Below are positions 4,816-36,050 of a DNA stretch of 37,833 nt, in pieces. A program made the translations under genes and the position numbers. The notes beneath the pieces were generated by a model. The model was not told the origin of the DNA. It did not search any database and saw nothing but the letters and a program-made list of their open reading frames with translations. Where the stretch lies: assembly GCA_052055015.1 (NCBI GenBank), contig JBQJIT010000061.1. The stretch is one strand, 5' to 3'. Every line of letters starts with the position of its first letter. Positions within the stretch are counted from its first letter, which is position 1. The DNA is from Malassezia furfur (taxonomy: Eukaryota).

Positions 4816-7800
4816 CTAGCAGTTCAGTACCGCGTGGCACCGCGTGCACAGCGGCTCAGAGGGCGCGCGCTGGTGCTTCCAGCACCGCGGGCACTTTTCC
4901 AGCGGCGACGGGCGCAGCGATACACCGCCATGCGGCAGTGTGCGCCGCCACGCTGCGGGCTGCGACTCGACGGAGGCCGCATCGGTGTGCAGGCACACGG
5001 AGGCGACCAGCAGGACGTCGGCGAGCTCGTCGAGGTACGGCGTGAGGAACGCCGCCTCGTCGTCCGACACGAGCAGGTTGACGGCGCACTCGGGTGCGGA
5101 CTTGACCAGTCTGGGTGAGTGGGGCGCGACGTACTGCTCGTTCTTGCACTGCGTCAGCAGCGTGTAGACGTCGGAACGGATGCGAAGGATGCGCCGCATG
5201 TCGTCCGCCGCCTGTGGGTCGTGCCACGCCGGGTCTGCGGACTGCCACCCGCGCGTGAACACCGAAGGGACCGTCTCGCCCGGCGCCGGGTCGGCCGTGC
5301 GCCCGTCGCGGTACCAGTGGATGTCCTCGGCGAGGTGCGGCAGGATCGGCGCGAAAAGGCTCGTGAGCGTCGAGAGGATCCGGTCGAGCACCGCGCGGAT
5401 GGCGTCGCTCCGCACGCCGCCCGCGTACAGTGGGTCCTTGGCGACGTCGAGGTACAGCGCCGAGAGCGTCGTGGTGACAAACTCATTGAGGCGGCGCGAG
5501 ACTGGGTCAGCGAAGGCGACGTACCTTTGGCAAAGTCGTACTGGGCGTAGGCGTCGCGGCACGTCGTCTCGAGGACGTAGAGCTCGTGCAGGACGTAGCG
5601 GTCAATCAGCGTGCGCTCCTCGGGGAGGGGAACGCCGCGCGGCACCCCGCCGAGGTTCGCGAGGAGGAAGCGCGCCGAGTTGCGCAGCTTGCGCACCTCG
5701 TCGCTCGCGTGCTTCATGATCAGTGGGCTGATAGGAATGTCGCGCGTGTAGTCCGTCTTGGCGGCCCACCAGCGCAGGACGTCGGTGCCGAGCGGCGCGA
5801 CGCCCTTTTTCGCGTCGCCATACAGGAAGGTGTCGGGGGTGACGACGTTGCCGAGCGACTTGGACATCTTGCGGCCCGCCTCGTCGACGACAAACCCGTG
5901 CGTAAGCAGGTGCGCGTAGGGCGCCGCGCCGTCGCACGTCGCGACGCGCGTCAGCAGCGACGACTGGAACCAGCCGCGGTGCTGATCGGTGCCTTCGATG
6001 TACACGCCTGCGCATGTGCCGGGCGCGCACAGCTCGAGGCCGCGCGCCTTTTGCAGCGTCGCCCACGACGAGCCCGAGTCGAACCAGACGTCGAGCGTGT
6101 CGTGCTTGACGACCCACTGGGCGCCCGGCGTGCGGTAGGCGGGCGCGACAAACGTCTCCGCAGGGAGTGTCCACCACACGTCGGTGGTCTGGTGCTCGGC
6201 AAAGACGCCCAGGATGTGCCGCACATTGTCCTCGGTCAGCAGTGCCTCGCCCGTCTCGGCGTTGTACACGGCCGGGAGCGGCACGCCCCATGCGCGCTGC
6301 CGCGAGATGCACCACTCGGAGCGCCGCCCGACGAGGCTCTTGAGCCGGTTGCGCCCGGTGGCCGGCACAAAGAGCACGTCGTCGAGCGCGCGCTGCGCGG
6401 CAGGGCCGACGTCGGACAGGTCCGCAAACCACTGCGCCGTGGCACGCACGAGCAGCGGCTTCTTGGTGCGCCAGTCGATCGGGTACGAGTGCCGGTACGG
6501 CTGCTCGCCCAGAAGCATGCCGTGCTCGTGCAGGAGACGCACCATCGCTGCGTTCCCGTCGCCGAGCGCCTCCTGCCCGTCGAGCTGCGCGAGCGCCGCC
6601 TGCAGCGCATCCGTCGTGCCCATGCCCTCGGGGACGCGCATGCGCCCGTGGTCGTCGATCGGCGACACCACCCCGCGCTCCGCGAGGCGGCCGGACTGCA
6701 CCCACAGCTCATAGTCCTCGTGGCCGTGCGCGGGCGCCATGTGGACGACACCGGTGCCTGACGAGGTCGTCACGAACGGCGCAGCGACGATCTCGCGCAC
6801 CTCGCCGGGCGCCATCAGCCCAAACGAGTACGCGGCCCCCACGAGGTCCGCGCCCATGCACGTCGCGACGCGCTCCGTAGGGCCGAGGCGCGCACGTTCG
6901 CCGCGCACGGCCATCCCCAGCGGGACGTCGGCGAGCGCCGCCTGCAGCTCGCTGGCGACGAGCAGCAGCTCGCCGTTCTCGCAGCGCACAAGCGCATACT
7001 CTGCGTCGGGGTGCACGGCGAGCGCCATGTTGCCCAGCAGCGACCACGGCGTCGTGGTCCACACCGCGAGGTGCACCGGCTCCTCCACGCCGAGCGTGCG
7101 GGCGAGCGCGTCGTGCGGCTGGAGGCGGAAGCGCAGGTAGGCACTGCGGCTGCGGTGCTTTTCGTCGTACTCGATCTCGGCCTCGGCGAGCGCCGTGTGC
7201 GACGACGGCGACCAGTACACGGGCCGGTAGTGCTGCTCAATGAGGCCCTGGCCGACCATCGTGGCAAAAACCTCGAGCTGCGTCATCTCATACGCGAGGT
7301 CCATCGTGCGGTAGGTGTGCGCCTCGTCCCAGTCGGCCATGATTGCATAGTCCTGGAACGCGGCACGCTGGCCGCGCATCTCGCGCTGTGCGACGCTGCG
7401 CGCCGCCGCGCGGACGTCGGTCGCGCTGAGCGTCTGGCCGCCGGCCTCGGCGACCGCCTTGAGCTCGATCGGCAGGCCGTGGCAGTCCCAGCCGGGCATG
7501 TAGCTACGAGGTGAGCGTGGTCGACGTACTGGACGCGGCGCCCCTGCAGGACGTGGAAGCGCAGAATAAAGTCTTTGAGCATCTTGTTCAGTGCATGGCC
7601 TGTGTCAGAGCGGCGGCGCGCTGCGTACCCATGTGCAGGCTCCCGTTCGCATAGGGCGGCCCGTCGTGCAGCACTAAGTCCGGCTGCCCATCGCCGCCGA
7701 GGTGCGCGCGCTGCCAGCGGTACAGGTCGGTGGTCGTCGCTGGGCGGAAGAGCGGCTCGCGCTCCGTTGCGCGCGCGCGCAGGCTGAAGTGCGTGTGCGG

Positions 7801-7980: not shown

Positions 7981-8807
7981 ATGAGCGATTGGGGTGCGTC
8001 GCCGTGGGTCTGACCAGCAGAGAACGACGACGAAGTGCAGCCTGTGCCGCGCGTCGTGGGCCGCCGTCGGTTCGAGGACGAGGACAAAGAGGAGGAGCCT
8101 GAAGATTGGGACGCGGAGGAGGAGGAGAAGCCCAAGCCCGCGCCGGTGAAGCCCGCACCCAAACCCGCGGCGCGTCCGGGGAAGGCCAAGAAGAACTTTG
8201 GCAAGGGCACCGAGATCAACCGCCGTGGTGTCGCTGGCGAGGAGACGGGTCTTGAGGACTGGGAGGGCCCGATCGATGAGGCGGAGCGCAAGCGCCGGCA
8301 GCGCGAGGCCGAGCTCAAGTCCGACCTGGACAACGCCGCGGCGCTCTTTGGCGGCGTGCAGTTGGACGAGGAAGAGCCTGCGCCCAGCAAGGCGGCGGCG
8401 CCCGCCGCGAGCTCGGAGCTTGCGCAGGCGCAGCCGACCACCAAGGAGCAGTGGGAGAAATATGCCAACGACGTCTACGAGGCGTACGTCAAGCCACAGG
8501 CGAGCCGTGGGGGCTTTGACAAGCATTTCTTCCCGCACTTCCTCACGCTGCTCACCTCCAACGGCCTGCGTGACGTGGACATGCGCAAGGGCTCGACGAA
8601 GCTGCGCGAGGCCGCCGAGGCCAAGGTCAAGGCGGACAAGGAGCTGAAGCGCACGGGCGGCAACAAGACGGTGGCCGCCGCCAAGGCGAAGCCGAAGCAG
8701 GTCGGCACCTCCAGTGCCAAGAACACGTACGTTCTACCTTACTCATTACCAGTTTCGACCTGGAAGCCTACGGAGACGAGGCGCTCGACGATGACGACTT
8801 TATGTAG
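7981..8807 (+). CDS. HCR1: Translation initiation factor eIF3 subunit J; introns 7994-8020, 8727-8752
   Basis: Spliced product starts MSDWENDD, has acidic EDWD patches and SDLDNAAALFG, and ends with the typical eIF3j ..DDDDFM-stop (TAG 8805-8807). Confidence 0.9.
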
Positions 8808-10636: not shown

Positions 10637-11335
10637 CTAAGAGCTCGGCGGCGCGAAAATCTCGCCGGCCCACGCGGGCGTCGGCTGCGCGTACGACCCA
10701 TTCGCCTGGTGGAGCGTGCCGAGCACCTGGTTCTTGCGCGCCTGTGCGGCGACCAGACGCTCGGCCTCGGTGCCGTGCCGCTCGCCATGCCGCGCGTCCT
10801 TCTTGATCGCATAAGCGACCGTCATGGGGCGGTTCACGAGGAACTGGTTGTTGAGCGCCTCGATCGCCGCATCGGACGCCTCGAACGAGTCAAACGACAC
10901 AAAGCCGTGGTTCTTCGACTCGTTCGTCACGCTGTCGCGCACAATTTTGGGGGTGCCTAGGATGGTCCCAAAGGCATGGAAGGTATCGTACAGCATCCGC
11001 TCGTCCACACTCGCGTCCAAATTCCCCACAAACAAGTTGGCACCAATGTCCAAGGGCTGCTTCGTATCTGCAGCCGCCATATTTACACGGATCGGTTTGC
11101 CAAACAGTTTGATGCCGTTCAGGATGAGACACGCGTACTGCGCATCGACCTCGTTGTGGAACTCAGCAAACGCAAAGCCTTGATGTAGTTGTGATACTCG
11201 GTCTTTGGGCATATACACATGTACCACTTGTCCGGCCTGGTACATGAGCTCCCACATGAGCTCGTCCGTGACGCGCTCGTCCAAGTTGCCGACGTAGCAC
11301 GTCGCATCTTGGTTGCGCTCCATCTCGCGCGACAT
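10637..11335 (-). CDS. HSH49: Splicing factor SF3b subunit 4 (two RRMs)
   Basis: [56 protein letters not shown] are SF3B4 signatures. Confidence 0.95.
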
Positions 11336-11404: not shown

Positions 11405-11651
11405 TTTGAACATAATCCACGGAGGTGCGTTGCCCCTCACTCACGCCGCAGACTCAAAGTTCGGGCTCGGCGACTCGTACCGACGTCCGCGTTCCCGTCT
11501 CCAAGACGAAAAACCCACCGGTAGGTGGGCAGGTGTGGGTGCGTCTGGGGCATTTCCTGCCGTCCTGCCGCTCTCCTTCGGGATAGAGCGACGGATGGCA
11601 GTCGAGATCACCCTAGATGTGCCCTCATTTGGGTCGTGTGTTCAGACACTG
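11405..11651 (+). ncRNA. H/ACA box snoRNA, snR37-like (predicted guide for the LSU rRNA Psi2944-equivalent), with a 27-nt intron at 11425-11451
   Basis: Guide hairpin: lower stem GGAG|AC/GTCTCC, pocket TCAAAGTT (11454-11461) and CGTTCCC (11490-11496), upper stem CGGGC/GTCCG. H box AGACGA (11504-11509) lies 14 nt from the pocket top. Further hairpins include a C-UUCG-G capped stem, and ACA is at 11646-11648 plus 3 nt. The pocket pairs with conserved LSU GGGAACG[U]G AGCU. The 5' end is approximate. Confidence 0.78.
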
Positions 11652-12439
11652 GCTTGACCAGACCGCCTTGCAGGAGTGCGGAATGGGCACAGGACCAATA
11701 TTTCTGCTCAGTCAGATTGTATACTAAGGTGTGTACAGGCTACATGCCGGCCTTGCCTCGTGAGAGACCTTAAGTCTACGCTAGGATGTGCACACAGTGT
11801 CGCCCCAAACTGTATTACTTTGATGATCGACCAACGAAGTACAGCCAAACAACCTCTTCATCACTGAGCATCACCAGCAAGGCCGGCAGCCGTGTCGGCG
11901 AACGATTTACTAATATACAGGACTCGGTCGCATTCATGCGTAATTACGTAGTCTGATAGATCTGGGCAGCGCAGTTCGCCTCAGCATAGGGTCGTGCCGA
12001 GACGCGGAAGGAAAAAGGGGCCTAGCGTGGTTGTCGAAATAATTGCCTATAGGGCACACGGCGAGGCGCGGCGCGGGCGCGGGGCTCCGCGCAACGCAGT
12101 GGGGCCCGATGGCCCCGCGCGGTCGACTGCGCACGCCCAGATTTTCTCAAATTCCGTGTGTGGGACGACGAAAGACGCGTAAACGGGAGTGAAATATCGG
12201 CCGAATCCATCTGGATATGCGCATTGACCCCACATTTTGACCAAAATGCGCTGATCCGCCAATCAAAACAAATAATCAGACCAGGGCTGGAAGTGTTGAC
12301 ACGCGAATGCCTAGCGTGGATAGACCAATGACAATTACCGCTCTTCGTTGGGACGCAGGTGTGGGAAGAAACCACATTTTCACAAACTTCATACAAAAAA
12401 GCAAAACAGACCATCCGACCGACCCCACAGACCACTGCC

Positions 12440-14221
12440 ATGAATCTCCGCCATATGGTCTACGGTGCACCCGTAGGTTTTCGGACCTACGGTGTGGCCC
12501 TCCTCGCCTCCATCGGTGGCTTTCTTTTCGGATGGTACGTCTTTGTTGTATTTCGTGAACCATGCTAACACACGCGAAGGGACACTGGTCAAATTGCTGA
12601 TCTGATGCTCATGGAGGACTTTATGACGCGTTTTGCGGAATATTCTCCTGATCCGACCGACCCTCTGCGTTTCCCGTACAAGTGGAACATGTGGAAGGAA
12701 GGTCTGATTGTTGGTCTGCTCAGTATCGGTGCCATCGTCGGATCTCTGCTCGGATCGCCCGTTGGTGACATCTTTGGTCGTCGTCATGGTATCTTCTCTG
12801 GGTGCATCATTATGTTTGTTGGTCTGATCATCCAAGTCGCCTCGGACCACTCGTGGATTCAGCTCGCTATCGGCCGTCTTGTGACAGGTGTTGCAATTGG
12901 CTGGCTCAGTGCGACGGTGCCGATCTACCAGTCTGAAACTGTGCCGCGCCAAGTTCGTGGTGCCTTGGTGGGATCGTTCCAGCTGTTTATTACCCTCGGC
13001 ATTCTGCTGTCGTACCTGACCTGCTATGGTACGCGCTACTACAGCAGCGGTGGCGAGCTCACTACGCCGGCATGGAACAACAAGGAGCCGACCTCTCGTG
13101 GCGAACCCCCTTCATCGGCACAATGGCGAGTACCTATTGGTTTAGGCTTTGCTTGGACCTTGATTCTAGCCGTCGGTATTTGGTTCTGCCCTGAAAGCCC
13201 GCGTTGGCTCGGCAAGCAGGAGCGTTACAACGAGATGCTTACCGTGCTGGCCAAGATGCGTGGTGTTGAAGAGGACGAGCCCTATGTGATGACCGAGTAT
13301 TATGACATCAAGCAGGAAGTCCTTGCTGAGCTCGAGCTTGAGAAGAAGAATCTCTTCGACTGCTTCCGCCTTGAGAACAAGACCTTGTACCGCACTTTGC
13401 TCGGTATGCTCATCCAGTCGGGCCAGCAATTGACCGGTGCCAACTACTTCTTCTACTACGGTGCCACCATCTTCCAGTCTGTCGGTATTTCCGACTCTTA
13501 CATTACCCAAATTATTCTCGGCGCGGTGAACACGGGTACGACGTTCTTGGGTCTGTGGGCCATGGACCGGTTTGGTCGTCGCTTTTGTCTGCTGCTGGGT
13601 GCCGCGTGGATGGTCATGTGGCTGATTATCTTCGCCACGGCAGGTGTTGTGGGTAACCCGATCGCGTTCGACTTGCCGGGCTCGCCGCCGAACCCGGACC
13701 ACTCGGATGACTATAACAAGTCGATTGGTACGCTGATGATCTGCTCTGCCTGCTTCTACATTCTGGCATTTGCCAGTACGTGGGGCCCGGGTGCTTGGAT
13801 TACCATCTCCGAGTTCTGTGCGCCGGAGACGCGTGGAATGCAGTTCTCGCTCGCGACGATGTGCAACTGGATTTGGAACTTCTGCATCGGTTTCTTCACG
13901 CCCCCCATCACCGGTGACATCAACTTCTACTACGGCTACATTTTCGTTGGCTGCAATACCTTCAACTTCCTGCTCATCTACTTCTGCCTTTATGAGACGG
14001 CCAACCTTACGCTGGAGGCCGTCAACACGATGTACCTTGACCCCAGCGTCAAACCTTGGAACTCGACCAAATGGGTTCCGGAAGGCTATACCTCGCGTCG
14101 CGGCATTAAGCAAGACATTGATGCGAAGGTGCGTGAAGTGGGTGGAGATGCGCGTCTGCCGGATCCGGAGATGATGAACAAGTCGACCGGGCTCCGTCTC
14201 CAAGATCGGGACCTGGAATAA
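12440..14221 (+). CDS. MFS sugar porter (hexose transporter family); intron 12535-12579
   Basis: Spliced N-terminus ASIGGFLFGWDTG; motifs DIFGRR, GRLVTG, PIYQSE..RG, PESPRWL, QQLTGANYFFYYG, DRFGRR, ETANLTLE. Confidence 0.93.
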
Positions 14222-14489: not shown

Positions 14490-16372
14490 TTAGCGAGCAT
14501 CCTCTTCGATGCTTCGATTTTGCGTCATCTCATCGTACTCAAGTCCAGAGGTGGGCCCATTGGGAACAGGCATAGCAGTGTGACGAGCCGAGTCGAGCCG
14601 CGCACACGTCTTGCCGTCACGCGAAAGGGGTGGCACATATCCAGTGGCCGGTCGCCGTGACGCAGCAGTGTGCCGCAACGAGTCATACTCGGCCGCGTAG
14701 GGGATCCCTGAACTCCCCAACGAGAAGTTTGAGGCGAGATTGCGATGTCGCATTGGAAGATAGCGCGTAACGGGGGGATGAGTTGGAGGCAAGGCTTCAG
14801 TAGAAGCACTTTTCAGCATGGGATGGACAGGCAAACCGGATGCGGTCGAGGAGGCCAGCTCAGTCGATCCGGGTTCGCCAAAATACGTCGAACGCGACTT
14901 TTTCAACGGACGCTCGCCAAAGCTGTCCCGAGCCGGGATGAGCGGGTCAACAGCGGTGGCCTCGGGCGGTACCGATGCGTCGACGGGTGTCTGTCGGTTA
15001 GTAATGTGCCCCGTGGACGTAAAAACATACCGAGTAGGCGCTGGATGGAGCCGTATACCCTTCCTTCTTGCCTGGCAAAGCATGCTTGGGCAAAGGAAGC
15101 GATGGGCGAGACTGGGATGCAAGCGTAGGCGACGCATACCCCACCGAATGGCGCTTGGACTGGGGGTTTGCCCAGCGCATTTCGGCAGACATGGTCGGGC
15201 TGTACCTACCGTTGCCAAACGAGGGCGAATAGGAGGCACGGGGGGAGTGGGGCATGTAAAATGCATGATAGTTGAGATCGTGGGAGGCGGTAGGGTAGGA
15301 GGACGGACCGCCTGTCAAAGGCATAGAGGCACGACGCTGCTGGTCGTGCAATGGAAACGGTGGCCGGTCCGGCACGATCGACACAGATCGCGACGTATAC
15401 AAACGCGAGTCAGGGGTAAGGCCCGGCGGTCGCAACCTGGTGGAGATTTCGGAAAGCGATGGAAGGGCCGAAGGAGAACGCGAATCGCTCCACGTGCCCT
15501 CCGAAGCCCCTCTCCCATACATGCCTGAGGGTGAAGTCAACGGCGCATGGGTAGGGCTCGCTGCTGCACCAAAAACGGGGCGGTTGAGCGATTGGATCGG
15601 GGCAGAGGAGCTGGGTGCCGAATGAGGGGAAAACGAAGCAGGCTGAATCGAGCGCGGCACAGACTTGGTATCCAAACGAGGAAGAGTTGTCGGTTTGAGC
15701 AGTTTTGATGGAGTGCCATTCTTGGACAGCGTTGCTTGCCGCCCTTCGTTGTGATCATCGCTCTCTGCCGAGGCAGGCTGGCTGAGAAGGGAGCTAACAG
15801 CCACCGAACCCCCCGGCGATGCCAGGACCGGCTTGGCGGATTCCTTGGCCGTGCCCTTCTTCTCGTCTGAAGTAGCCCTAGGCTCGGGCTTAGCCCCGTC
15901 TGGGATGACGACACGGGCAAATGTCCGCTGGTTCTTTGCGGCCGAAGCAGCAAGGTTGGAGTGTAGAACAGTGAGCTGGCGCAGGATCTCTTCGTTGCGC
16001 TCTGGCGTGTCAGAGTGCACCGTCTGACAATGCTGTCGCAAGTTGTCGAGACGGGAAAAAGCCTTTTGGCAGTGACACTGGAAAGGACGTTCTCCTGTGT
16101 GCTTGCTGCGGTGTTAGTGGCGAGACCCTGCAGAAAACATACCGAACATGGCGAGCCAAGTGTTCGCTGCGTGTGAACACCATACGACAGTCGCCGAACC
16201 CAGAGCATTGGAAGACGGTGGTGCTTCCGGACCCTGAATTTGCGGGTGCCCCGGACGAGCCTTTGGCATCGGAGCTCCGCGCGGCCTTGGCCGGCTTAGT
16301 ATTCACTGGGTTGTCCCCACCGTTCGCAGCCCAGGAACGCGAGTCCTGCTTAACAGTGGAAGCGGACTGCAT
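14490..16372 (-). CDS. C2H2 zinc-finger transcription factor, Usv1/Rgm1/NsdC-like; introns 16106-16142, 14991-15030
   Basis: Splicing gives [54 protein letters not shown] followed by a Ser/Pro-rich tail. Both introns start GTATGT and have CTAAC branch sites. Confidence 0.85.
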
Positions 16373-19594: not shown

Positions 19595-22500
19595 ATGGTC
19601 GTGAGCGGTGCGAAGGCAAAGCCCCACCTGACGCTGCGGAGCGGCATGCAGGTGGGCATCAATGGTGCGTAATGTGCGCCTGACGCAGACTTTGTATACA
19701 TTGCGCTGCCGTGGGCGGTGGGCATGGGCGAGCCGTACGTCGTCGCGCGCGTGATGGACTTTGTCGCGCCCGCGGGCGAGAGTGGCGCGGGTCAGCAGGT
19801 GCGCGCGAACATCTTTCTGCGGATGCGCGACCTGACGCATCGTGCCAACAACGACTCGCGCCTGCTCGTCGCGACGATGCATGCGGAATTATACCCCGTC
19901 GAGGCGATCCGCGGCAAGTGCCGCGTGAAGCACCGCGACCTGATCGGCAACGGCGCCCCGCCGGAACTCGCCGTGTGGAAGCGCAAGGACGACCACTTTT
20001 ACTACCAGCAGCTGTACGACCGTTACATTCACCGCTTCTACGACGTGATCCCAACATGGAAGGTGAAGAATGCGCCGGCAGCGGTGCTCGAAACGCTGCG
20101 CGAAAAGTACTCGTTCATCGTCGCGGAGCCGGCCATCTCGGCAGATCTGTGCGACGCGCTGCGCGGATGCGCCGTGTGCCACGAGTGGGCGCCCAGCGCC
20201 GAGTCGGTGCGCTGCGATACGTGCCGCAAGTACTTCCACATGCACTGCGTCTCGCCGCCGCTGCAGTCCAAGCCCGCCAAGGGGTACAGCTGGTCGTGTG
20301 CGCCGTGTACAAAGCAGCACGATGCGCTTGTGGAAGAGCAGGGCGTCGGCGGTGGTGGCCTGCATTCCGACACCGCGCCGCCCGCCCGCGCGCCGCGGTC
20401 ACAGGCAGCGGCAAGTCGGCGCACGAGCCGCGCGCACCTGTTTGGCGACGTGCCGGCGCCCGCGAGCGACGCGGCGCTGCACACCGCGATGGATCGCGAG
20501 GGACTGCGCTGTTTCCAGGGCTGGCCGTACCGCTACTTTGGCGAGTACACCTCGGCGATGGACGTGCTCGATGCCCACGACTCCATCTACCCCCGCGCCG
20601 TGACGCGGTGTGGGCCCAAGTTCCAGATGCCCGTGCCCAGCTGGGAGGAGCAGCACGAGCTCGCGCCGGGCGAGGCGCGGCGCACCGAAGCGGAGCCGCC
20701 GCAGGACGCCGCGTCGCCGTCGCCGAGCAAGTCGGCGACGCGCATGCGGCGCAAGAGCCAAACCAAAAAAGCGCGGCGCGACGCCGCTAGTGCGATGGAG
20801 GTCGATGACGAGTCCACGCCGACGCCCACCGACACCGTGTACGAGCGCGGAGGGCCCGACACGGTGCACTGTCTGTACCTTCCCCCCGCCGAGCCCAGCG
20901 TCGCCGACGGTGTGGAGACGTACCTGCAGGCGGTGCGTGCGCCGCGCGCGCATTTGCCGCGCACCGACGTCTCGTACATGGACCGCGCACTCGAGCTACT
21001 GTGTGCGCACCACTTTGACACGCACGCGGCCGCCGAGCAGTTTGCGCAGAGCAAGGACGCCGACTTTGGCTACTTCCAGCTGACGTCCAAGGAGAACGAG
21101 AGTCTGGGCAAGGCGATGATGGAGCACGGCGCTGAGATGAGCGCGCTGAAGCGTGCGCTGCCAACCCGAACGCCCGCCGAGATCGTACGCAGCTTGTATG
21201 CGTGGCAGACGTACGTACCCACCCACTGACCCAGCCACCAGCTCGGCGAACGGTGGCGCGCACAGGCGAGTGCACGCGCCGACGGCCGGCGCGGCACGCC
21301 GGCCGACGCCAAACCGCTGCGCGACGTGTCGCCCGCGCGCTCCATCCTGAGCACCGACGAGCTCGACGAGATCCACGACGCGAACCCGGCAGCCAAGCTG
21401 CACTGTGCGTTCTGCAACGTGGCCACCGAGCCGTTCTGGTACCGCGGCTTTATCAACTGGACGGGACGCATGCTGTGTGTGTACTGTGGGCAGCTTTGGC
21501 GCAAGTACGCCGCCGAGACCGCGAGTGTGTTCATCACCGACGCGAAGCGCAAAGCCGCGCAGGAGCACGGCGGCGAGGAGCGCGGGCTCGGTGTGCTGGT
21601 GCCCGTCCACGTCAAGTACACGCCGCGCGCCGCTGCGCCGCACGCCACGACGCTGCAGCCCGGGTGGGCGTCGCCGGCGCCCCCGCCCGTGCCCGAAATC
21701 GGCAAGTGTGTACTGTGCCGCCGGCTGGACCCCAAGCGGCGCCTGCGCAGCTGTGCGCAGTGCGGCATGGCGGCACACCAGGGCTGCATCGGCATCACCG
21801 ACGCCGACATGGATGCCAAAGAGTGGCTGTGCGACGTGTGCCGCAACGACCGCGACCCGAACGTGGCGCTGCTGCCGCACTGTGTGCTGTGCGACGAGGC
21901 AGCAACCGACCGTATGCCCGCCGCGGCGCGCGGCGCGCGTGCCGGCGACGACGACAGCAAGGCAGGGCTGCTGGGCGCACTGGACGTGTACAAGCCGACC
22001 GAGTGCAACAACTGGGCGCACCTCGTGTGTGCGATATGGACGCCCGAGGTGCTGTTTGCGGACGCCAACACGATGCAGCCCGTCGAGGGCGCGAGCAGCT
22101 TACCGCCGTGGCGCTACGACTCGCCCTGTGCGCTGTGCAAGCAGGTGCGCGGCGCGGTCGTGACGTGCGCGGAGCCGACGTGCCGCACGCGCTTCCACGT
22201 CGCGTGCGCCTTCCAGGCGCAGCCGTCGTGCACGCTGGCGTTTGAAATCTTCCCGGTGAAGACGTCGCGGCGCGACTCGGTGCAGACGCTCACGTTCAAG
22301 TCGGAGACGGGCCACATGTGCGCGCAGATCTGGTGCAAAGAGCACCGCGGCGTCGCCAAGTCCAACACTACCTACGACTTCTTTGAGAGCGACGCCAAGC
22401 TCGGGCTCACGGCGCTGCAGGCGTACGCACGCACGCACAAGCAGGTGGCGAACACGTCGCACCGCAACTCGGCCGTCGTCGAATCGTCGCACGCGCTGCT

Positions 22501-32850: not shown

Positions 32851-34286
32851 GTGTCACGAGCAGGTTCTTGACGTTGGGCAGCGTGTTGCGTAGGTCCAGC
32901 ATGGGGACTCCGTAGGCGTGCATGAGCTGCTCAATGTCCTTGTTGAGCAGGAACACGCCATATTCGTAGCGATACGGCTCCACGCCTTTGCCGTAGAGGG
33001 CAAACGTTCGTGGCCCGGACATGACGCTGATAGGGTCTTGGACGACGGCGCGGCTGCCGACCGGGCGGAGCGGATAGGGCAGTGGGATATGGAGGTAGGC
33101 ACTGGCCAAGACGACAATCTGGGCGACGTATGCCAGTGCAGCTGCACTTTCGTCCAAGGCCGACTTGTGCACCAGGGCGCCTGACCGCTCGTCAGTAGAT
33201 GCGACGCCGTTTGGTAGTGCGAGTCCGGCAATCGAATAGAGTAGATCGCGTGCACTCTCGAGCTGGATGGGGTAGATAAACTCGAGGTCACGCAGAAGGC
33301 GCACGCGGTGCTGCTGGATGGACTGTTCGAGTTCCTCGGCGCGTTTCCTGATGTTAGACAGCGTAGCGACGTACGTGGTCTCAGTGGACGCTTCTTGTGC
33401 CCGTGTGTGGCGCTGCCGGATATCTTGGAGCAGGGCAGCGCCGCGTTCCAAGTTGTCGCGGCGTGTCTGCAATGCCGAGCGTGCTTCAACGACCGCGGCG
33501 CGCGCTGGATAAGATGGGACACGTACCGCGAGACACTTCCTCCTTGCGCAGCTGGACGCGGTGGCGCAAATCCTTGAGTCGTTGTCGAGATTCGAGCTGA
33601 TGGCGCTGCGTTGGTGGTCTGAGACGTACCTTTTCAGCCAGGCCATTGTCGGTGAGGGCATGACCGCACCGCCGCTGCAGTGTATGCAGAGCGTCATGTA
33701 GCGCGTTGAGGTCTCCTTGGACATGCACCACGCTCAGGGCTTGGGCAAGCGTGCAGCTCCTCTGCATGTGGGTCTCCACCATTGAGAGCAGCATCGCACG
33801 GCGGCCGGCTTCCTCGGCGTCGGGCTCGTGTGATGCATCGTTGTGGACTGCGACGTACTCCAACTGGGTATCTGCGCGATTCTGGCGCAAGCCGAGGTAC
33901 ACCAGGTTTGGCTGCGGCTCATACACCGTGCCGAGTTCGGTGCCGAGCGACGGGAGCGTACGCAGGTCAATAAGGACCTCCCAGAGACACGACCAGTGTT
34001 GGCCTGTGCGTACATAGAGTCCCACGAGCAGTTCGGGCGTGTGCGACCATGCCGAGGGTGCAAAGTCGTGTGCGGGCCGGATCGGCGGGCTGGTGTATTC
34101 CCCCCACGACGCCTGTGCGGTGGGTGCGGGCCGTGTGATATAGAACGGGGGCTCGTTGGGCCTGCGTAGGGTCACGAAGCAGGCAGATACGCTCGCCGTG
34201 TCGGATGCCGACGATGCCGTAGACGCCTGTGCGTTGCGCACATGCACCGCCGCGAGATCGGCAAGGCGTCGGTGCGCGGCGGCCAT
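32837..34286 (-). CDS. Vps38/UVRAG (Atg14-family) PI3K complex subunit; introns 33606-33629, 33505-33526, 33348-33374
   Basis: C2-like N-terminus and coiled coil, then LEFIYPI..YSIAGLALP..AAALAYVAQIV..YLHIPLPYPL..GSRA..DPIS..YEYGVFLLNKDIEQL..DLRNTLPN. Confidence 0.82.
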
Positions 34287-35031: not shown

Positions 35032-36050
35032 CTACTTGGGCGGCTGGTACGGCTCCACGAGGTACTTGGAGAGCGACTCGAGCTTGGCAGGCCCGCGCAC
35101 CTCCTCTGTGAGGAGCGGGATTTTGACAATGTTGAAGTCCTCCGCATACAGGTCCTCCATCTCGGCGACGTACTTGTCCTGCATCGCCTTGCGCACGCGA
35201 CAGTGCTCGCACGTCGAGCCCGGCGGCGGGTAGAGGAGCTGGTTGCACACGATGGCGTGGGTATCGATGTCGTACTGCGTGAGTTCCTGGATGAGGCGCT
35301 CAGTCTCGTAGAGCGACAGGAACTCGGCGATACACACGCACACAAACGTGGTCTTATCCGCGTCCTTGAACTGCGAGTTGACCTCGGTGATCACCTGGCG
35401 CATCGACTCGAGCTTCGCAAACATGTCCTCCTGCGAGCCCTGGCCGCCGCCCATCATGTTGGTCAGCTGCGAGAACATGGGCCCGAGGCTCTTGCCAAAC
35501 GTGCTAAACTTGGCGAGCGCCTTCTCGAGCACCGACGGGAAGGAGAGGAAGCGCAGCGTGTGGCCGGTGGGCGCGGTGTCGAACACCACGACGCTGTACT
35601 CCATCGACTTGACGAGCTTCATGATCTCGGCAAAGCCCATCGCCTCGTCGACACCCGGGATGGCGAACGCGAGGTCCTGCATAAACGGCGCCATCGCACC
35701 GCCCTGCTGCTCGGCTGGGGTCAGCGGCGGCCGAACGTACACTGCTCGATCATCTCCTGCATGCTGCTCGTCGGGTCGATCTCCATGGCGCTCAGGTTGC
35801 TGAACCCGTTCACCTTGACCGCCTCGCGCCCAAACTTCTGGCCGAACGCGTCCGAGAGGTTGTGCGCCGGGTCGGTGGAGATCAGCAGGACGCTCTCGCG
35901 CACCTTGGCGAGCTGGATCGCGAGCGCACACGAGGTGGTCGTCTTGCCGACACCACCCTTGCCGCCGCAGAACACCCACTTCAGCGACTTCTGGTCAAGG
36001 ATGCTCTGCAGCGTCGCGGGCTGCGCGTCGTCCACGGTCGTCGTCGCCAT
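35032..36050 (-). CDS. GET3: ATPase Get3/ASNA1; intron 35715-35740
   Basis: [60 protein letters not shown]. Confidence 0.96.

Follow-up and report, generated by a model that had tools for sequence, protein, structure and literature searches.

A candidate snR37-type H/ACA snoRNA of Malassezia furfur with an intron-like 27-nt element in the lower stem of its guide hairpin

In box H/ACA small nucleolar RNAs (snoRNAs) the 3' strand of the pseudouridylation pocket pairs with the ribosomal RNA (rRNA) 5' of the target uridine, its 5' strand base-pairs on the 3' side of the target+1 nucleotide, and the target lies 14-16 nucleotides upstream of the H or ACA box. We studied a candidate of this class on the + strand of a 37,833-nucleotide (nt) stretch of Malassezia furfur DNA (GenBank assembly GCA_052055015.1, contig JBQJIT010000061.1); the whole stretch is referred to as the window. 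The candidate occupies positions 11405 to 11651. Its guide is of the kind known from yeast snR37, and a 27-nt element with the form of a spliceosomal intron (11425-11451) lies inside the lower stem of its guide hairpin.

For yeast snR37 a preprint (10.64898/2026.03.20.713187) reports by experiment that the 5' hairpin guides pseudouridine 2944 (Psi2944) in helix 90, and it equates yeast U2944 with human U4521, a predicted target of SNORA10. According to the same source a branch of 113 nt (nucleotides 62-174) emerges from the pocket region of the 204-nt 5' hairpin, the RNA has a 5' leader in addition, and the 3' hairpin, described there as having no pseudouridylation pocket, acts as a scaffold for Upa1-Upa2. 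Spliceosomal introns within a snoRNA are described for U3: fungal U3 genes, those of Basidiomycota included, carry them within the first stem-loop's 5' side (PMC5832005), and U3 and U6 are presented in that paper as the sole small structured RNAs that introns frequently interrupt. In the intron-hosted arrangement, for example snR191 in NOG2 and snR59 in RPL7, the production of the snoRNA is likewise tied to the spliceosome, and according to PMC8476143 this arrangement occurs in M. sympodialis. The main text of a paper on the fungal snoRNAome (PMC5824354) mentions neither snR37 nor Malassezia. Our limited literature search (Malassezia snoRNAs and intron-containing snoRNA genes) yielded no description of an intron inside an H/ACA guide snoRNA. 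If spliced, the candidate would, within the scope of this search, be the first gene of this RNA class described as interrupted by a spliceosomal intron.

The guide of the candidate lies in its 5' hairpin. The 3' strand of the pocket, CGTTCCC (11490-11496), is a perfect complement of the rRNA string GGGAACG over 7 base pairs (bp), directly 5' of the target uridine. The 5' strand of the pocket, TCAAAGTT (11454-11461), ends with AGTT (11458-11461), which pairs as AGUU with the rRNA sequence AGCU located 3' of the target U-G (three Watson-Crick pairs and one G.U pair). From the pairing rule given above it follows that the pocket would select the U in GGGAACG-U-G-AGCU, with 7+4 bp to the flanking rRNA. 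We take this U to be number 2944, by our own count from neighbouring modification sites. The complete string GGGAACG-U-G-AGCU is contained in a depletion probe for yeast 25S rRNA (PMC8044721) and in the human 28S rRNA sequence given in PMC12477938. The preliminary description of the locus had proposed an snR37-type guide for this conserved uridine of the large subunit rRNA, and the pocket pairing together with the presence of the target string in yeast and human bears the proposal out.

We compared the frequency of this constellation with the expectation from shuffled sequences. In the window, both strands counted, the pattern AGTT-N(20-40)-CGTTCCC-N7-ANANNA has a single match where 0.01 would be expected (a match was seen in 1 of 100 shuffles). 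The shorter pattern CGTTCCC-N7-ANANNA also matches once in the window, against an expectation of 0.05 and with 4 of 100 shuffles matching. The two pocket strands with their distance of 14 nt from the H box, the H box itself (AGACGA, consensus ANANNA, 11504-11509) and the 3' end three nucleotides past an ACA at 11651 are all located where the preliminary description had placed them.

Around the pocket the guide hairpin consists of a lower stem (P1) and an upper stem (P2). The 3' strand of P1 is GTCTCC (11497-11502), the partner of GGAGAC, and the 5' strand is contributed by the two segments flanking the intron-like element: GGAG (11421-11424), the last 4 nt of the putative exon 1, would form the outer 4 bp with CTCC at 11499-11502, and AC (11452-11453), the first 2 nt of the putative exon 2, the inner 2 bp with GT at 11497-11498. 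In the minimum-energy fold predicted for the spliced RNA, P2 has 9 bp with one bulge and, together with a 9-nt loop, covers 11462-11489. The distance from the base of P2 to the start of the H box is exactly 14 nt (11490-11503). The remainder of exon 1, upstream of P1, is a putative 5' leader (11405-11420).

Downstream of the H box the fold prediction yields a small hairpin, CCCACC-GGTA-GGTGGG (11514-11529), and a long 3' hairpin of 102 nt (11530-11631), which is almost fully paired, with bulges of 1-2 nt only, and pocket-less; a three-helix junction like that of yeast is not evident in it. The 3' tail (11632-11651) contains the ACA box (11646-11648) and the three terminal nucleotides, and the ACA begins at the proper distance, 14 nt, from where the long hairpin ends. 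The layout of hairpin, hinge, hairpin and tail is present, with AGACGA between the 5' hairpin and the long 3' hairpin. Inspection by eye gave no convincing rRNA match for a 3' pocket. In the minimum-energy fold the whole RNA is closed by a helix between leader and tail (11405-11414 with 11636-11645; 10 bp, of which 8 Watson-Crick and 2 G.U). This helix was rejected as evidence: of the genomic 16-mers, 15% pair equally well or better with the G/U-rich tail. The tail also overlaps a 38-nt pseudo-intron on the + strand (11636-11673), GTGTGT..TTGAC..CAG with a non-consensus branch, which covers the ACA box and, if ever used, would remove the 3' end of the snoRNA.

The comparison with the described RNAs shows both likenesses and differences. 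In common with snR37 and SNORA10, the candidate carries its guide in the 5' hairpin and would direct it at the U of GGGAACG-U-GAGCU (yeast U2944, human U4521). With snR37 it further appears to share a pocket-less 3' hairpin, a possible 5' leader and extra sequence on the 5' side of the junction between lower stem and pocket. It is considerably shorter than snR37 (about 220 nt compared to 386 nt), its guide comprises 11 bp compared to 16 guide nucleotides in yeast, and it has neither the long internal 5' branch nor a recognisable three-helix junction for Upa1-Upa2. The extra 27 nt resemble an intron and not a structural branch. A further difference is that a scan of the unspliced DNA revealed no similarity between the candidate and the models in Rfam. 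Judged by its guide, H box, spacing and layout, the locus very probably encodes a genuine snR37-type H/ACA snoRNA.

We then consider the 27-nt element. For introns of the Malassezia type we expected a 5' splice site GTRNGT, a branch site CTNAY, a 3' splice site YAG, a length of about 24-30 nt and a branch 5-9 nt from the 3' splice site, and 11425-11451 agrees with each of these. The 5' splice site is GTGCGT (11425-11430), CTCAC occurs twice in an overlapping arrangement (11436-11440 and 11440-11444) and the 3' splice site is CAG (11449-11451). Measured to the last intron base, the G of CAG, the distance of the branch A is 8 nt, or 12 nt with the first CTCAC as the branch site; the spacing of 8 nt agrees with the messenger RNA (mRNA) introns of the window. 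The mRNA-intron form that the preliminary description had noted, GTGCGT..CTCAC..CAG, thus matches the build of the 24-27-nt introns that join open reading frames (ORFs) in the window. For comparison, the curated annotation of M. sympodialis gives a mean intron size of 30 bp (PMC5389616, Table 2).

In order to quantify this we defined a strict mini-intron motif (GTRNGT, CTNAY and YAG within 20-35 nt in total) and counted its matches on both strands of the window and in 100 dinucleotide shuffles. There are 8 matches compared to 1.8 ± 1.3 expected, with a maximum of 5 in any shuffle. The 1.8 matches per 75.7 kb in the shuffles correspond to a chance rate of ~2.4e-5 for each base and strand. A chance occurrence of the motif within the ~50 nt that matter for the guide hairpin would have a probability of the order of 1e-3 and is improbable by this estimate.

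Besides the candidate the strict motif has 7 matches. Four of them join long ORFs unchanged: the eIF3j intron (7994-8020, + strand, 27 nt, joining 105 and 274 codons), which has the same 5' splice site GTGCGT as the candidate; the GET3/ArsA intron (35715-35740, - strand, 26 nt, 258 and 226 codons); the intron of a class I tRNA synthetase (IleRS; 7504-7529, - strand, 26 nt, 143 and 782 codons), whose CTCAC branch also recurs in the candidate; and an ATG14-like intron (33348-33374, - strand, 27 nt, 119 and 169 codons), for which read-through is also possible. One more joins ORFs if a nearer 3' splice site is used: with the CAG at 21234, the intron 21211-21234 (+ strand) connects 512 and 518 codons. 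The 26-nt GET3 intron is confirmed by Pfam, as the ArsA_ATPase profile is matched at positions 2-76 in the upstream exon and at 96-304 in the downstream exon. The 3' end CCGCAG is common to the candidate and to a 37-nt intron at 16106-16142. The 24-27-nt mRNA introns of the window (GTRCGT..CTNAC..YAG) can serve as a local splice-signal reference for the species.

The predicted folding of the 5' hairpin was computed with and without the element. Once the 27 nt are deleted, the free minimum-energy prediction is the canonical hairpin itself (-21.2 kcal/mol), with a 6-bp P1 (GGAGAC/GUCUCC), a pocket of 8/7 nt and the 9-bp P2. With the 27 nt retained, the canonical hairpin can be formed at -20.9 kcal/mol (P1 as GGAGGU/GUCUCC with two wobbles) or at -17.2 kcal/mol (GGAG..AC around a 27-nt bulge), whereas a competing fold with the guide buried comes to -27.9 kcal/mol and is 7-10.7 kcal/mol better than these canonical versions. 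For an RNA that starts inside the element, P1 would consist of a G-C pair, a C.C mismatch and AGAC/GUCU, and the corresponding values are -14.3 kcal/mol for the canonical hairpin and -18.2 kcal/mol for the free fold. None of the unspliced versions folds into the canonical hairpin at minimum energy. Upstream of the guide we also scanned deletions of 15-45 nt, 651 in all. The canonical hairpin became the minimum-energy fold in 9 cases, 3 of which have an identical product due to a repeated AG, and 11425-11451 is the only one among the 9 with GT..AG ends.

On these motif statistics and predicted folds we lean, with modest confidence, towards an snR37-type snoRNA split by a functional 27-nt intron. 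A number of results count against it. Deletion of the element does join GGAG to AC and produces GGAGAC, which pairs perfectly with GTCTCC, as the preliminary description had stated. However, the intron-internal GCAGAC (11448-11453) differs from GGAGAC at one position only, a C.C mismatch, so that the gain in the stem from splicing is smaller than had been implied: compared with the intron-internal stem it amounts to one base pair. Hexamers resembling a 5' splice site are locally common (7 in 1.1 kb), and 2 of the 7 other matches of the strict motif (97-119 and 8727-8752) join no ORFs and look spurious. The 3' domain shows no convincing lower stem next to the ACA box. A stem between AACCCAC (11512-11518) and GTGTGTT (11636-11642) is possible and energetically poor, and the canonical two-hairpin fold has -84.5 kcal/mol compared to -105.8 kcal/mol for the minimum-energy fold. 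The Rfam check that had been suggested was run on the unspliced form and returned no H/ACA match; no H/ACA family matched the unspliced DNA, either at the gathering score, which no family reached, or at E <= 10, where an snR67-like match described below was the only one in the gap. By E-value the scan of the whole window produced 7 matches, one of them this snR67-like match and the other 6 far below their gathering thresholds, which we read as noise. Finally, the 113-nt branch of yeast snR37 is apparently inserted at the same place, and an unspliced RNA might also work.

This last point leads to the reading that the 27 nt are kept in a snoRNA that is never spliced. They would loop out at the spot of the snR37 branch, or the RNA would start near 11445, and the intron signals would be due to chance. 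The stem would be either the GGAGGU/GUCUCC version with its two wobbles or GGAG..AC around the bulge. As described in the preprint, yeast snR37 has both a 5' leader and a branch (nucleotides 62-174) that leaves its 5' hairpin in the pocket region, so an insertion is evidently tolerated there, and a 6-bp stem, albeit one containing wobbles, is available without splicing. Against this, a full intron motif, for which the shuffles give ~2.4e-5 chance matches per base and strand, occupies the very site at which deletion re-creates a perfect stem. By itself the insert forms hardly any structure (a 4-bp helix at best), and the unspliced RNA favours the guide-burying fold by the 7-10.7 kcal/mol given above. 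We regard a retained element as unlikely. The 5' splice site at 11425 could also be joined to a distal 3' splice site (TTGAC..CAG, 11654-11673), and the H/ACA snoRNA would then reside within a 249-nt intron of a non-coding host, with the intron-internal GC.AGAC/GUCU.C as its lower stem and the proximal CTCAC..CAG as a coincidence or a minor alternative site. The spliceosome would in this case have to ignore a consensus branch and a CAG at the modal distance of 27 nt in favour of a TTGAC that is non-consensus, whereas all ORF-joining introns examined use CTNAC or CTNAT, and equally weak modules are found 7 times in the 1.1-kb gap in which the candidate lies. A lower stem of 4+1 bp is conceivable, but in this version the minimum-energy fold is a different one (-18.2 kcal/mol, with the canonical hairpin at -14.3 kcal/mol), and the complementarity of the exon end GGAG to CUCC would become a coincidence that we put at 1 in 256. 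Two facts keep this arrangement in consideration: it is described for M. sympodialis, in introns of NOG2 and RPL7 (PMC8476143), and the locus resembles a spliced host of several snoRNAs, as a 5' splice site at 11729 and TACTAAT..CAG ending at 11920 bracket a neighbouring box C/D candidate. We nevertheless judge it decidedly unlikely.

The constellation could also be non-functional and have arisen by chance in promoter or 5' untranslated DNA of HSH49 and its neighbours. The missing Rfam match of the unspliced DNA and the non-canonical stem next to the ACA box would fit such an explanation. It would have to account for a guide and H-box pattern that is expected only 0.01 times per window and for a target that is a known conserved pseudouridine site, served by snR37 according to the preprint. 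Furthermore the upper stem, the 14-nt spacing, the distance of the ACA from the long hairpin and a pocket-less 3' hairpin like that of snR37 would all have to coincide. We give this explanation very little credence.

If the candidate is indeed an intron-split snoRNA, its biogenesis might proceed as follows. The locus would encode the Malassezia counterpart of yeast snR37 and human SNORA10, and RNA polymerase II would read the gene from the gap that it has in common with HSH49. The 5' strand of P1 would be interrupted by an ordinary 27-nt spliceosomal intron (11425-11451). Splicing would join GGAG to AC, and only then would the 6-bp P1 (GGAGAC/GUCUCC) form beside the H box. The completed hairpin, with its pocket of 8/7 nt and 9-bp upper stem, would have the shape that is bound by Cbf5, Nop10, Nhp2 and Gar1. 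The mature RNA would span the exon junction and be about 220 nt long if it starts near 11405, and its 3' half would consist of the pocket-less long hairpin followed by the ACA. Transcription, splicing, the RNA ends, protein binding, the modification and the presence of exon 1 in the mature snoRNA are all steps that we infer from the sequence.

Such a gene would be a U3-type intron-containing snoRNA gene in the H/ACA class. It would resemble the U3 genes of fungi (SNR17A/B; many Basidiomycota) in that the intron is a canonical spliceosomal one, whereas U3 is a processing snoRNA of the box C/D class and the candidate is an H/ACA guide. With respect to intron-hosted snoRNAs the topology would be inverse: the candidate would be made from the ligated exons while the intron is discarded.

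A more far-reaching combination of ideas can be formulated. Splicing could be an obligatory licensing step for the H/ACA small nucleolar ribonucleoprotein, in that the unspliced precursor would misfold and hide the guide, and the exon-exon junction alone would create the lower stem to which Cbf5 binds. From the numbering in the preprint we infer that the yeast snR37 branch lies on the 5' side just above P1, which is the position of the Malassezia element. A common origin of branch and intron is therefore conceivable: either budding yeast would have kept an ancestral intron as a structural part, or Malassezia, with its streamlined genome, would have made an ancestral branch into an intron. In addition, a box C/D snoRNA may be released from the next intron of the same non-coding precursor whose exons would supply the H/ACA snoRNA. 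That obligatory licensing, a common origin of branch and intron, and two snoRNAs from one precursor should all apply together is a long shot.

The box C/D candidate concerned is an snR67-like sequence 130 nt downstream (11782-11869, + strand). Its Rfam score is weak, with 20.5 bits compared to a gathering score of 55, and the E-value is 5.3 over the whole window and 0.11 in a scan of 801 bases. The 11 nt of its guide, UGUCGCCCCAA, agree at every position with the Rfam consensus. UGAUGA is found at 11821 and CUGA at 11864, and the 5' C box is degenerate. The sequence is flanked by taag/GTGTGT at 11729 and by TACTAATATACAG ending at 11920, and the splice-signal scan accordingly outlines a possible second intron of 192 nt that encloses it (GTGTGT..TACTAAT..CAG, 11729-11920, + strand). 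The preliminary description had inferred an independently transcribed H/ACA snoRNA; the C/D candidate, bracketed by splice signals of its own, makes this uncertain. With such signals present the gap may be one spliced non-coding snoRNA precursor, and the sequence suggests a non-coding transcription unit with several snoRNAs. The C/D candidate itself may be of the intron-hosted kind.

If the split gene is real, the 24-30-nt introns of Malassezia would also populate non-coding RNA genes, and the production of a guide for a pseudouridine of the peptidyl-transferase centre would be linked to the spliceosome, beside a gene for a spliceosome component (HSH49/SF3b4). Introns of this kind can hide non-coding RNA genes from annotation by covariance models; at this locus Rfam gave no match. 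This suggests repeating snoRNA annotation on intron-masked sequence in intron-dense fungi with small introns.

The divergent neighbour of the candidate is the HSH49/SF3b4 gene on the - strand (10637-11335). Its 232-amino-acid ORF product shows 99% identity to the 'Spliceosome-associated protein 49' of M. brasiliensis and 69% identity to the M. sympodialis protein. As this ORF occupies 10637-11335 on the - strand, the sequence from 11336 onward is its divergent upstream gap. The candidate lies on the + strand inside this gap, which is 1.1 kb long and separates HSH49 from a sugar-transporter gene. Reading the + strand of the gap we found no ATG ahead of 11424, and the host of the candidate snoRNA would therefore be non-coding. 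The 83-amino-acid frame that spans the 11424/11452 junction retrieved one candidate from the protein database, and none was scored. A motif scan for an intron in the 5' untranslated region of HSH49 (- strand) found none. Scans with the HSH49 protein confirmed 0 loci among 141 pattern matches in metagenome contigs and 0 among 95 in genome contigs, and an exact 30-mer of the candidate exon 2 was not found in the metagenome contigs.

On the other side of the gap the sugar-transporter gene has its ATG at 12440 and contains a Sugar_tr domain. Near its start we observed a 45-nt intron (12535-12579, + strand), GTACGT..GCTAAC..GCGAAG, which appears to end with AAG and not with YAG. It joins ..GGFLFG/W to DTGQIADL.., and in the downstream exon the Sugar_tr match starts with profile position 15. 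Within the gap, ahead of the transporter gene, 12060-12130 (+ strand) is a very G+C-rich and partly palindromic stretch, GGCGCGGGCGCGGGGCTCCGCGC..GGGGCCCGATGGCCCCGCGCGG.

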